Part shown: positions 4,794 to 42,149 of the stretch, in pieces | Layout: each line of letters starts with the position of its first letter | Position numbering within the stretch: the first letter of the stretch is position 1 | Source of the DNA: Escherichia coli | GTDB lineage: Bacteria > Pseudomonadota > Gammaproteobacteria > Enterobacterales > Enterobacteriaceae | DNA length: 64,000 bases | Reading direction: 5' to 3' (one strand) | NCBI RefSeq assembly: GCF_030013205.1 | Contig: NZ_CP122648.1 | The notes under the pieces: model-generated | The model's input: only the letters and a program-made list of their open reading frames with translations | Told to the model about the DNA's origin: nothing | Database searches by the model: none | Position numbers and translations under genes: made by a program

Positions 4794-5256
4794 CGTTTTA
4801 CTCTGTGTTGGCAATAGCATGATGGGCGATGATGGCGCAGGTCCGCTGCTGGCGGAAAAGTGCGCCGCCGCGCCGAAAGGTAACTGGGTGGTGATTGACG
4901 GCGGTAGTGCACCGGAAAACGACATTGTCGCTATTCGCGAACTGCGCCCGACACGACTGCTGATTGTCGACGCCACGGATATGGGGCTAAACCCCGGCGA
5001 GATCCGCATCATCGATCCGGATGATATCGCCGAGATGTTTATGATGACTACCCATAACATGCCGTTGAACTACCTTATCGACCAGTTAAAAGAAGACATT
5101 GGCGAAGTGATTTTCCTCGGCATCCAGCCGGATATCGTCGGCTTTTACTACCCGATGACCCAGCCGATTAAAGACGCCGTAGAAACCGTTTATCAACGGC
5201 TGGAAGGCTGGGAAGGGAACGGCGGATTCGCGCAGTTAGCGGTGGAAGAAGAGTAG
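4786..5256 (+). CDS. hycI: Hydrogenase 3 maturation endopeptidase HycI
   Basis: 156 aa, overlaps hycH stop, last gene of hyc operon. Confidence 0.9.
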   Translation: MTDVLLCVGNSMMGDDGAGPLLAEKCAAAPKGNWVVIDGGSAPENDIVAIRELRPTRLLIVDATDMGLNPGEIRIIDPDDIAEMFMMTTHNMPLNYLIDQLKEDIGEVIFLGIQPDIVGFYYPMTQPIKDAVETVYQRLEGWEGNGGFAQLAVEEE

Positions 5257-38333: not shown

Positions 38334-38669
38334 TTATATAATCGCCATCACTTTCCAGGCGAGCCCGTAGGCCAGCGCACTAAGCAGTGTTGGGATGATA
38401 ATGCTGCGTGTTTTATAGAAACTGGCACCCAGTACCGCGAAGCCGACCAGCGTGGGCACGAAACGGCGTGTATCGTGCATCACTTCTGGTGCGGTAGAGA
38501 CAACCAGCAGAGCGCATATCGAGGCGATGCCAATGGTGTCGAGCAAAATACCTACCGCGCCACGTTTGGTTGGGCGGGCATTACCCACACGCAGGCGCAG
38601 CGGCAAATAGCGGAAGCAATAATTCGCCGCGCCAACCAGTAACCCAAGCAGCAGAACCTCATAGCTCAT
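38334..38669 (-). CDS. ygaH: L-valine exporter small subunit YgaH (AzlD-like)
   Basis: 111 aa hydrophobic, overlaps ygaZ stop. Confidence 0.85.
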
Positions 38670-39396
38670 CGGGCGCTCCTTGCCAGAATGCCTGGATTAA
38701 CGCAGTGAGGCAGCCACAGACAATGCCTGCCAGAATGGCGACGGGAATAGAAAATAGCGTTACGCCTGCAAGGGCACCAACTAACGCTGCGGTAACGCAA
38801 AGAGATTGTTTGCGCTGGAAAGAGGCGAGCAGGAAACTCATAAAGAGTGCCGGAAGCATAAAACCTAATGCTGCTTCAACGGCGGGATATCCTTGCAGCA
38901 AGCCGCTGCCGGAGAATGCCCCTATTACCGTACCAAATACCCACGATGACCATGAACTGAAGGCAATGCCGATCATCCAGTTCTCGCTCCAGCGGCGATT
39001 ATTGCGTACCAGTTTTGCGGTTGCGGCGGCAAAAACCTCATCCGTCAGGCCAAATGCCCACAGGGCGGTTTTCGATTTTTGCAGACGCTGAATAATACGG
39101 CTACGCAGTGACGGGCCATACAAAACATGGCGAACATCCATTGCCATGACGGTCAGTGCAGCAACCCACAAACTACTCCCGGCTGCCAGCATCGCGGTAA
39201 TGACGAACTGGCTCGCGCCTGCATAAATGATGCAGGAGAAAAAAACGCTTTCGAGAGGAGAGAATCCCAGACGGGTCGCATTCAGACCGAACGCAAAGGC
39301 CACCGGAATATAACTAATAACAATCGGTAAACTGTCTTTGCATCCTTCCATGAAGGTCGCCGAACCAGGAGCAGGCTGTGGAGTAGGGCTTTCCAT
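38659..39396 (-). CDS. ygaZ: L-valine exporter large subunit YgaZ (AzlC-like)
   Basis: 245 aa membrane protein. Confidence 0.85.
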
Positions 39397-39519
39397 AGAG
39401 TGTACGCTTAACGATTGTTAATATTATAAATAGACTGAATGAATATCTTAACCTTATCAGACTGATGGGCTTCTTAACACCCTTATAAGTGTAAAGCCAC
39501 GAAAACGGTTGCTGATTGC

Positions 39520-40704
39520 TTAATTTGCGGCTTCCTGACGATGAAAACCTCGCCACCAGACCAGTAAGTTAACCAGGGCAATCGTCGCGCCAGCCAGACA
39601 AACGCCAGCCCAACCGCCATGTTGCCAGGCTGAGGCTGAAATTAGCGAACCGGCGGCACCGCCAATAAAGTAGCTGGTCATGTAACCTGCGGTCAGGCGA
39701 TTACGCGCATCAGGATGTATTCGATAAATTACCGTCTGGTTAGTGATATGCACGCCCTGCACGGTGAGGTCCAGCACCAGGATGCCGATAATCAGCGCCA
39801 GTACGGAAGTGTGACCAAACCAGATTGCCAGCCATGAAAGTAACAGCAGAAGCAGACCGAAAGTTGTTGTGTGGTGCGATTTGCCCTTGTCGGCAAAACC
39901 GCCCGCCGGACGAGCGCCCAACGCTCCGGCAGCTCCCGCAAGTCCAAACAGACCAATTACACCATCGCTGTAGTTAAAAGGTGGAGCGGCAAGCAAAAAG
40001 GCCATTGAGGTCCAGAGAATGCTGAAGTTGGCAAAGGTCAGGCAGCCCAGCAACGCGCGGGTGCGCAGAATTTTATCGCTGATAAACATGCTGAAAACGG
40101 AACCAAGCAACTGTGGGTAGTTGAGGTGGGTTTCTGATTTCATTTGTGGCAGACCACGCCATAATGCCAGCGCCATCAGTGCCATTAACACCGAGGCAAC
40201 CCAAAAGACGGTGCGCCAGCCGCCGAGGTTTGCCAGCAACCCGGCAACGGTTCGTGCCAGCAAGATCCCCAACAGCAGCCCGCTCATAATGGTGCCGACC
40301 ACTTTGCCGCGTTTGTCTGGTGAAGCCAGCGTCGCTGCCAGCGGAACCAGAATTTGTGCCACGACCGAGAATAAACCGGTCAATGCCGTACCGAGGATCA
40401 TCATCGCCAGCGACTGACTGCTGGCAGTAATTAACATGCCGCCTGCCGCCAGTAAGGTCATCGAGACAATCAGGCGGCGACGTTCAAACATATCACCGAG
40501 GGGAACAAGAAACAGCAGACCTGCGGCATAGCCCAACTGTGCGGCGGTAACAATAAAGCCTGCCGAACTGGCGGAAAGGGAAAAGTTACGCGCGATGGTG
40601 TCGAGCAATGGCTGGGCGTAATAGTTACTGGCTACCGCCAGACCGGTGGCGATAGACATCAGCACGATCAGCGCCGGGCTAAGCTCATGATTAGGTTTAG
40701 TCAT
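39520..40704 (-). CDS. ygaY: MFS transporter YgaY, apparently intact (394 aa)
   Basis: Continuous 12-TMS-like ORF; position matches the ygaX/ygaY locus between ygaZ and proX. Confidence 0.8.
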   Translation of the reverse strand: MTKPNHELSPALIVLMSIATGLAVASNYYAQPLLDTIARNFSLSASSAGFIVTAAQLGYAAGLLFLVPLGDMFERRRLIVSMTLLAAGGMLITASSQSLAMMILGTALTGLFSVVAQILVPLAATLASPDKRGKVVGTIMSGLLLGILLARTVAGLLANLGGWRTVFWVASVLMALMALALWRGLPQMKSETHLNYPQLLGSVFSMFISDKILRTRALLGCLTFANFSILWTSMAFLLAAPPFNYSDGVIGLFGLAGAAGALGARPAGGFADKGKSHHTTTFGLLLLLLSWLAIWFGHTSVLALIIGILVLDLTVQGVHITNQTVIYRIHPDARNRLTAGYMTSYFIGGAAGSLISASAWQHGGWAGVCLAGATIALVNLLVWWRGFHRQEAAN

Positions 40705-41156
40705 TATTTTTGTTCATCAGGTGATGATTAAGCTGGAAATCAATAATAGCGGATGTTGATGAATGTGGGGCGAAAGATAGATTGTTAAAATGTGCGGGTA
40801 ATGGGGAGAGGGTATTTGAAGGTGAAATATGCCACTAAGGCAAATGTTACGTTCACTTCCAGACTATAGCTACTTTGTCACTATTTTGCTGGTGAACGTG
40901 CCAGGGTGGCTCAGTCGCCACCACCCTGGCGACCCAGGCTTTTGGCACAAAATCGCCGCTACGCGGTACATTCGACTTATTTCTTACGGCTATCGGGTAC
41001 GGGCGCGAGGTAACATCCCTGTAAGACGCGCCCTCGCCGCGCATCCCTGCGCGTCGCCCCGGCCTTCAGAAAACGTCTCATCGATTTTCAGCCGGATTAA
41101 AACCATCGCTGCAATTGTTTTACTCACATGAGCATTATCTGCGCGGTTATCAATAT

Positions 41157-42149
41157 TTACTTCTGCGCTGCCAGCGCCTCATTCACCCAGCCATCGAACT
41201 GCTGCTGGTGGGCTTTGATCCAACCATCAACGTGGCCCTGAATATCGCCTTCTGAGGCTTTGCCTTCATGCATAATGGCGTTCTGGGCGTTAATATCTGC
41301 CACTGGCAACTGCATAATGGCAAACAGTTTGGCTGCCGCCGGATTTTTCTCGGCCCAGGCTTTGTTGGCAACGATATGCATGGTACTGACCGGGAAGCCG
41401 TAATTCGCGCCATTCGGCAGTTTGGTATCGGCATTTTTATCGCCCGGCAGTGCGGAGAACGGCACCTGCAACCAGACCACATCTTTCCCCGGTTTCAGTT
41501 CGTTACTCACCCAGTACGGCGTCCAGGTGTAGTAAAACACCGGCTTACCCTCTTTGTAACGACTGATGGTGTCAGCCATCATCGCTGCGTAGTTCCCCTG
41601 ATTATGCGTCACGGTATTGGTCAGTCCATACGCGGCAAGCTGGTGGTTGATCGCACCTTCGCAGCCCCAGCCTGGGTTACAGCCGGTTAAATCCGCTTTA
41701 CCGTCGCCGTTGGTATCGAACAGTTTGGCGATCTTCGGATCTTTAAGTTGCGCGATGTTGGTGATTTTGTACTGGTCGGCGGTTTTCTTATCGATCAGGT
41801 AACCCTGTGCCGCGCCGTTAACGAATACCCCTTCACGATAAAATTTCTTATCGCCACCGGCAGCTTCGTACATGTTGTCATGCAGCGGCGTCCAGTTCAC
41901 GGCGGTGAAGGTTGCATCGCCGGAAGCAAGCGAGGTGTAGCCAACGTTGTAATCCACTTCGCTGGGTTTATTGACGGTATAACCTAATTTCTCCAGTGCA
42001 CGACTGACCAGCAGCGTCTGGAAGGTTTCTTCAGTGATGGTGCTCTGAACTGGATTAACAGTAATGCCTTTGCCCGGCAGATCGGCAGCAAAAGTTTGTG
42101 TAGAGATAAGCGTGGCAAACGCTGTCGCAAAAAGTACGCTATGTCGCAT
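41157..42149 (-). CDS. proX: Glycine betaine/proline ABC transporter periplasmic binding protein ProX
   Basis: Start [21 protein letters not shown] (signal peptide); ORF-track start 42191 is an extension. Confidence 0.92.

Follow-up and report, generated by a model that had tools for sequence, protein, structure and literature searches.

In E. coli K-12, ygaY is a pseudogene. The locus raises the question of whether this is the state of the gene in the species or a property of the laboratory strain, and what kind of protein an intact copy would encode. In this study, the locus was analyzed in a 64,000-nucleotide stretch of E. coli DNA (contig NZ_CP122648.1), referred to here as the window.

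Identification of ygaY in the window

The segment 39520-40704 on the minus strand was a single uninterrupted ORF of 1185 bp in the ORF listing, with an ATG start and a TAA stop, encoding 394 aa. In E. coli CFSAN018748 (NZ_CP028192.1), the same coordinates carry the RefSeq CDS WP_000165699.1, named 'MFS transporter', and the tested 1.4 kb of the window was 100% identical to this Danish swine isolate. Pfam MFS_1 (PF07690) matched the protein with 142.2 bits against a gathering score of 33.4 (E 2.6e-41), so a chance origin of the ORF is implausible. A first-pass annotation had described a continuous 394-aa MFS ORF at this locus, and the ORF listing, the RefSeq CDS, and the Pfam match all confirmed it. 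The gene and its two neighbours were located as follows:

39520..40704, minus strand: intact ygaY CDS, 12-TM MFS transporter (ORF, RefSeq CDS WP_000165699.1, Pfam MFS_1, AlphaFold2, Foldseek)
38659..39396, minus strand: ygaZ, L-valine exporter subunit, downstream neighbour and synteny anchor (ORF listing, RefSeq)
41157..42149, minus strand: proX, glycine betaine/proline ABC transporter binding protein, upstream neighbour and synteny anchor (CDS coordinates from NZ_CP028192.1)

The gene order on the minus strand was proV-proW-proX-ygaY-ygaZ-ygaH-emrR(mprA)-emrA-emrB, with proVWX upstream of ygaY and the rest downstream. The closeness of ygaY to proU and emrAB, remarked on in the annotation, was real. 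The ORF belonged to the ygaY orthologue group, as shown by the proX/ygaZ synteny, a nucleotide identity of 96.7% with K-12 derivatives over the 1.4-kb query, and an alignment with K-12 b2681 containing a single indel. The ygaY of the window is very probably the intact, ancestral E. coli form of the gene, encoding a single-polypeptide 12-TM major-facilitator transporter related to DHA1-type exporters. Such an intact ygaY is real and functional-looking, but it is ordinary and already known, RefSeq annotating the intact gene in thousands of genomes.

Nature of the K-12 lesion

In MG1655 (NC_000913.3), ygaY (b2681) is flagged by RefSeq as a pseudogene of 1178 bp, and in a K-12 derivative PGAP labelled the gene 'frameshifted'. 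The K-12 locus was formerly annotated as two genes, ygaX (b2680) and ygaY (b2681). K-12 and the window shared the locus and the proX-ygaY-ygaZ-ygaH-mprA-emrAB synteny. The pairwise alignment of the window gene with b2681 showed 35 substitutions and one sole indel, a 7-bp gap in K-12 at gene nt 255-261. The gap fell in the following feature of the window:

40437..40450, minus strand: perfect tandem repeat GGCGGCA·GGCGGCA, gene nt 255-268, codons about 85-90, in TM3 (alignment, sequence read directly)

The intact gene reads ...CTTACT GGCGGCA GGCGGCA TGTT..., while one GGCGGCA unit is missing from K-12 and its frame is broken. The K-12 frame splits into an 88-aa ORF and a 305-aa ORF, and 14 stop codons were counted in the original frame. 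The window gene kept both units, had zero internal stops, and lacked the frame-disrupting lesion. The annotation had described the K-12 locus as broken and had proposed an alignment to MG1655 for locating the disruption; both the break and its absence from the window were established in this way. The pseudogene status of K-12 ygaY is already established in RefSeq and the literature, and the small addition made here is to define the lesion precisely: of the two units of a perfect 2x7-bp repeat, one has been lost.

The 305-aa ORF of K-12 had the same amino acid sequence as the window protein from residue 90 to residue 394, and there was no difference in the first 86 residues either. When the 7 bp were restored, K-12 and the window gene differed by synonymous changes only; the value of 1.0 nonsynonymous difference given by the Nei-Gojobori method for K-12 was a path-averaging artefact at one CTT/TTG Leu codon. 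Because all other K-12 differences are synonymous, the lesion is evolutionarily recent. A 7-bp loss of this kind is what a slipped-strand or short-homology deletion typically leaves, and the K-12 pseudogene most probably arose once and recently, when a slippage-type event removed one of the two 7-bp units. The frameshift (codons 86-88) lies inside TM3, helix 75-94 of the AlphaFold2 model described below; therefore, neither K-12 fragment could form a complete N-terminal six-helix bundle. As the lesion is one repeat unit, repair of the K-12 gene for functional tests is straightforward.

Protein family and structure

Besides MFS_1, Pfam matched Sugar_tr over the N-terminal half of YgaY and MFS_4 over residues 31-381. 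None of the curated NCBIfam cutoffs was reached by YgaY or by any of 86 diverse family members. The best NCBIfam match was TIGR00895 (aromatic acid/H+ symporter), with 78 bits against a cutoff of 418 over residues 20-187. The DHA1 subfamily models also fell below their cutoffs: TIGR00710 (Bcr/CflA) gave 50.4 against 200.9 bits, TIGR00880 (multidrug) 42.2 against 131, and NF008654 (EmrD) 38.1 against 479. A named curated family for YgaY was rejected, the NCBIfam scans of the protein and the 86 members being far sub-threshold.

An exhaustive HMMER search found 1144 representative clusters at E <=1e-30. Among 120 close and 10 distant clusters, no functional name was found beyond generic ones, and the named homologues from Burkholderiales, Gilliamella, Bacillus, Rhodococcus, and Salinisphaera were called just 'MFS transporter' or 'arabinose efflux permease'. 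A Salinisphaera family member labelled 'DNA methyltransferase' looks mis-annotated. A predicted protein of 596 aa on a 5.4-kb ENA contig scored 1092 bits against YgaY, where an identical 394-aa match scores 834 bits; the higher score points to an internal duplication of part of the sequence, a fusion, or faulty assembly.

The three-dimensional structure of YgaY was predicted by AlphaFold2 with an alignment of 86 sequences. The model had a mean pLDDT of 95.3, a pTM of 0.93, and 12 TM helices, arranged by residue as follows:

Residues 10-40, 45-65, 75-94, 99-126, 132-161, and 163-184: helices before the linker
Residues 196-209: linker helix
Residues 211-239, 247-272, 276-298, 301-329, and 331-393: helices after the linker, the last comprising TM11 and TM12

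The peaks of the hydropathy profile were consistent with this fold but merged into 10 instead of 12, and the helices were resolved from the AlphaFold2 model. The model consisted of the two six-helix bundles and the linker of an MFS protein, and Foldseek gave TM-scores of 0.8-0.9 to many solved MFS proteins. The TM topology that the annotation had wished to see predicted was that of a 12-helix MFS protein.

The closest structural and full-length sequence relatives were DHA1 (TC 2.A.1.2) members. In the Foldseek search of the PDB, the top matches were SotB (TM-score 0.84-0.90), MdfA (0.83-0.84), and NorA (0.78-0.81), over about 380-390 columns, followed by VMAT, SPNS2, and FLVCR. The family profile matched SotB (3e-16), EmrD (9e-15), and YajR (2e-11) among the PDB sequences over the full length. 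SotB, an E. coli DHA1 sugar/drug:H+ antiporter (PDB 6KKI/6KKJ/6KKK/6KKL), resembles YgaY in its 12 TM helices and similar size, with an rmsd of 2.4-2.8 A over about 380 columns, but shares 17% identity with it. YgaY is not the SotB orthologue, since the 'sugar transporter' model NF002921 gave 63.8 bits against a cutoff of 401. The multidrug:H+ antiporters MdfA, EmrD, and NorA of DHA1 share the fold (TM-scores about 0.78-0.84 for MdfA and NorA; profile match for EmrD). However, their identity to YgaY was 15-18%, their models TIGR00710, NF008654, and TIGR00880 remained far below cutoff, and YgaY lacks the GP motif of TM5.

Two charged residues embedded in the membrane were nearly invariant in the family: R151 (TM5) and D312 (TM10). 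The TM2-3 loop contains a motif A-like sequence, PLGDMFERRRL, with P68, G70, and D71 invariant or nearly so; the match to textbook motif A is approximate and was judged by eye. The motif recurs in the TM8-9 loop as GGFADKGK, where G268 and D272 are conserved. The DHA antiporter motif C (G-x-x-x-G-P-x-x-G-G) was not seen in TM5 on inspection by eye; the helix was glycine-rich and had no GP. TM5 reads ...TIMSGLLLGILLAR... / RGKVVGTIMSGLLLGILLARTVAGLLANLG, and the family consensus is VMSGLLxGILLAR. MdfA has a conserved acidic pair in TM1, whereas on sequence inspection YgaY has no such pair and its D35 is not conserved. NorA has a protonatable Asp in TM10, the helix that contains D312 in YgaY, and the two residues may correspond.

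Mechanism and direction of transport

YgaY would be expected to work by alternating access between the N- and C-terminal six-helix bundles, presumably driven by the proton gradient, with R151 and D312 as candidate coupling or substrate residues. Judging from its relatives, the protein would export a small metabolite or a xenobiotic, and export rather than uptake was given slightly better than an even chance. Export is favoured because the fold and profile neighbours are exporters and because a Bacillus homologue adjoins a divergent TetR-family regulator, a common arrangement beside efflux pumps. This reading is weakened by the lack of DHA motif C in TM5 and by the matches of the N-terminal half to symporter families.

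The same two features bear on the opposite reading, that YgaY is an uptake symporter whose substrate is a nutrient or a compound related to osmoprotectants, a role consistent with its site beside proVWX. TIGR00895, the best single NCBIfam match of YgaY, is a symporter subfamily that 67 of the 86 family members also match; the best match of the single sequence in the PDB was the glucose symporter GlcP, over the N-terminal half only; and ygaY adjoins proX. However, the symporter matches were confined to a generic N-terminal half and far under the curated cutoffs, whereas the full-length best matches in both sequence-profile and structural searches were all exporters (SotB, EmrD, MdfA, and NorA). 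In addition, the adjacency to proU was not seen in the distant homologues. Uptake is possible on these grounds but rather unlikely, and export is the reading retained here.

When the surroundings of distant homologues from Corticimicrobacter, Bacillus, Rhodococcus, and Salinisphaera were compared, these four had no genes in common. Therefore, the enterobacterial adjacency of ygaY to proU, ygaZH, and emrAB is no evidence of a shared pathway, and a functional link between ygaY and these genes was rejected as unsupported. It is unlikely that YgaY represents a broad MFS subfamily (>1,100 clusters at 50% identity, E <1e-30; Proteobacteria, Bacilli, and Actinobacteria) with a specific physiological substrate linked to its enterobacterial neighbours, such as amino acid or compatible solute export alongside YgaZH and ProU. 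If this were true, the function would have escaped notice through a 7-bp slip in K-12, on which nearly all knowledge of E. coli transport physiology is based.

Distribution of intact and broken alleles in E. coli

The distribution of the gene was investigated in a survey set of 5,426 complete E. coli genomes. The 1.4-kb query matched 5418 of them, with at least 80% query coverage in 5413. The alleles at the repeat were typed with junction-specific probes, in which no 28-mer seed could match another allele:

353 genomes: K-12 one-copy junction (junction probe)
1663 genomes: perfect two-copy repeat (junction probe)
2144 genomes: synonymous imperfect variant GGCAGCG·GGCGGTA (junction probe)

The three probes typed 4160 of the 5418 genomes, and the remainder carry SNPs within the probes. 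In all 353 one-copy genomes, the flanks matched those of K-12 with an identity of 99% or more, and the one-copy genomes that were listed (60/60) were K-12 derivatives, including MG1655, BW25113, C600, JM109, S17-1, J53, and MC4100. The perfect repeat occurred in A/B1-type alleles, including that of the window, and synonymous changes break the repeat in ST131 and O157-type alleles.

Direct sampling of ST131, O157:H7, MRY15-117, NCTC9113, 2013C-3513, and H1 gave the full 1185-bp CDS with 0-4 aa differences. Of 40 evenly spaced records listed, 39 gave full-length rows, and only three of these differed in length: two came from K-12 derivatives, and the third had lost 3 bp in frame. An in-frame 3-bp deletion allele of 393 aa was seen in E. 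coli PSS-10 (extracted locus 721-1902), where it is annotated as intact. In E. coli PCP06021 (NZ_CM129877.1, extracted locus 2196-2658), ygaZ and most of ygaY were lost in an independent deletion, and a 159-bp 5' remnant of ygaY abuts a shortened ygaH.

Intact ygaY is the rule in E. coli and the K-12 laboratory lineage is the exception, because the K-12 junction was found in 353 of the 5,426 genomes, those listed were all K-12 derivatives, and the sampled lineages were full-length. The intact copy had been presented as a trait of this particular strain. The copy is indeed intact here, but this is nothing special to the strain, since intactness is the norm of the species. Although work on K-12 has treated the gene as junk, essentially all natural isolates carry it as a conserved transporter gene maintained by selection. 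K-12 is an incomplete proxy for E. coli in this respect; beyond that, the finding has little import. YgaY may be taken as a candidate transporter for studies of efflux, amino-acid export, and osmoadaptation in non-K-12 strains.

Selective constraint and expression

The window gene differed from those of the six sampled lineages by 25-47 nucleotides and 0-4 amino acids. The dS values were 0.08-0.15, the dN values 0.001-0.005, and the dN/dS ratios 0.009-0.030. Strong purifying selection is indicated because dN/dS was at most 0.03. Orthologues of 394 aa were present in Shigella, E. fergusonii, E. marmotae, E. albertii (393-394 aa), and Citrobacter (93% identity). From the sequence data, dN/dS and the conserved length argue for ygaY being a maintained, functional gene. 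The annotation had suggested that the strain keeps a functional transporter, and a functional-looking one was supported by the 12-TM MFS fold, the low dN/dS, and the 394-aa length kept through Escherichia and Citrobacter.

No sigma-70 consensus promoter or clear Shine-Dalgarno sequence was found upstream of ygaY in the promoter scan, and shuffled sequence gave at least as many promoter and terminator matches. A conserved segment lies directly upstream of the gene:

40705..40815, minus strand: upstream region conserved with K-12, presumed promoter and leader (intergenic alignment, last ~110 columns near-identical)

On the other side of the gene, a good sigma-70-like site, TTAAGA-17-TATAAT (10/12), was noted at 39423-39451 on the minus strand, within the 123 bp that separate ygaY from ygaZ. 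This suggests that ygaZH has its own promoter, independent of ygaY transcription.

In metabolic engineering, ygaY serves as a favoured chromosomal integration site. The literature search on 'ygaY' found no functional study, and the gene appeared just as a K-12 pseudogene, a control, an integration site, and an H-NS bridge anchor. In K-12, the ygaY locus is reported to anchor H-NS bridges and to be little transcribed, its transcription increasing upon osmotic shock when stpA is deleted (10.1101/2023.07.10.548347). The literature also speaks of the 'crypticity of ygaY'. Expression of ygaY may be low or conditional, because the K-12 locus is reported to be H-NS bound and poorly transcribed.

These reports also bear on the idea that ygaY is intact but cryptic and decaying in E. 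coli generally, with K-12 and PCP06021 as the first losses. Two independent inactivations are known, the 7-bp deletion of K-12 and the deletion spanning ygaH to ygaY in PCP06021; the scan gave no consensus promoter; the K-12 locus is reported to be associated with H-NS and little transcribed (10.1101/2023.07.10.548347); and K-12 grows normally without ygaY, delta-ygaY having been used as a neutral pseudogene control (10.1101/072470). However, a dN/dS of 0.009-0.030 with dS up to 0.15 means sustained purifying selection. Moreover, query coverage reached 80% or more in 5413 of the 5418 genomes with a match, only three of the 39 full-length rows differed in length, two of them from K-12 derivatives, and orthologues as far as Citrobacter keep the 394 aa. 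General decay is very unlikely in view of these data, and a maintained gene is the reading preferred here.

A contingency (phase-variation) switch, in which slipped-strand mispairing at the 2x7-bp repeat would have caught K-12 in the OFF state, was rejected as scarcely credible: exactly one repeat unit was lost, and the perfect tandem persists in at least 1663 genomes, but two 7-mer copies are a very weak slippage substrate, the one-copy genomes all have K-12 flanks (those listed all being K-12 derivatives) with no independent OFF event among the ~1663 perfect-repeat genomes, and the synonymous variants of about 2144 genomes break the repeat yet keep the protein, so the repeat is not conserved.

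The proX-ygaY spacer

The proX-ygaY spacer (40705-41156) was 452 bp long in the window, compared with 191 bp in K-12, ST131, and O157:H7 and 291 bp in NCTC9113, H1, and PSS-10. The full-length extra DNA was present at this locus in only 547 of the 5,426 genomes. The K-12 spacer had REP-like sequence in place of the extra DNA, and only ~110 bp next to ygaY were common to both. Within the spacer of the window, an unannotated structured element was observed:

about 40888-41096, minus-strand sense: unannotated structured element, ~210-nt core, within the proX-ygaY spacer

Copies with 80-84% identity were found in E. coli between asmA and yegH and between mmuM and tauA, none of them annotated. A more sensitive search detected copies at ~75% identity in Klebsiella and Citrobacter, in up to 9-11 places per chromosome. 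When four copies were scanned, three matched the Rfam family TwoAYGGAY (RF01731) below threshold, with 28-31 bits against a gathering score of 43, on the proX/ygaY strand; the mmuM-tauA copy of 0H18 had no Rfam match at E up to 1. TwoAYGGAY was reported from human gut, gamma-proteobacteria, and Clostridiales as a motif that is probably an RNA (PMC2864571).

The element contained two hairpins with conserved CA(G/U)GGAUG loops, whose stems covaried between copies, and an invariant 3' hairpin at 40900-40930. RNAalifold on four copies gave 70 pairs, 13 of which kept pairing through changes on both sides. By sequence and predicted folding, the element looks like a divergent enterobacterial branch of TwoAYGGAY, possibly a dispersed RNA or a mobile intergenic element. 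It is separate from the ygaY finding, yet it is the least ordinary thing in the neighbourhood. Near other copies of the element, at 4832-4870 and 311-349 of two extracted loci, a JUMPstart RNA (RF01707) scored above its gathering score upstream of the colanic-acid gene wza, which is expected and ordinary.
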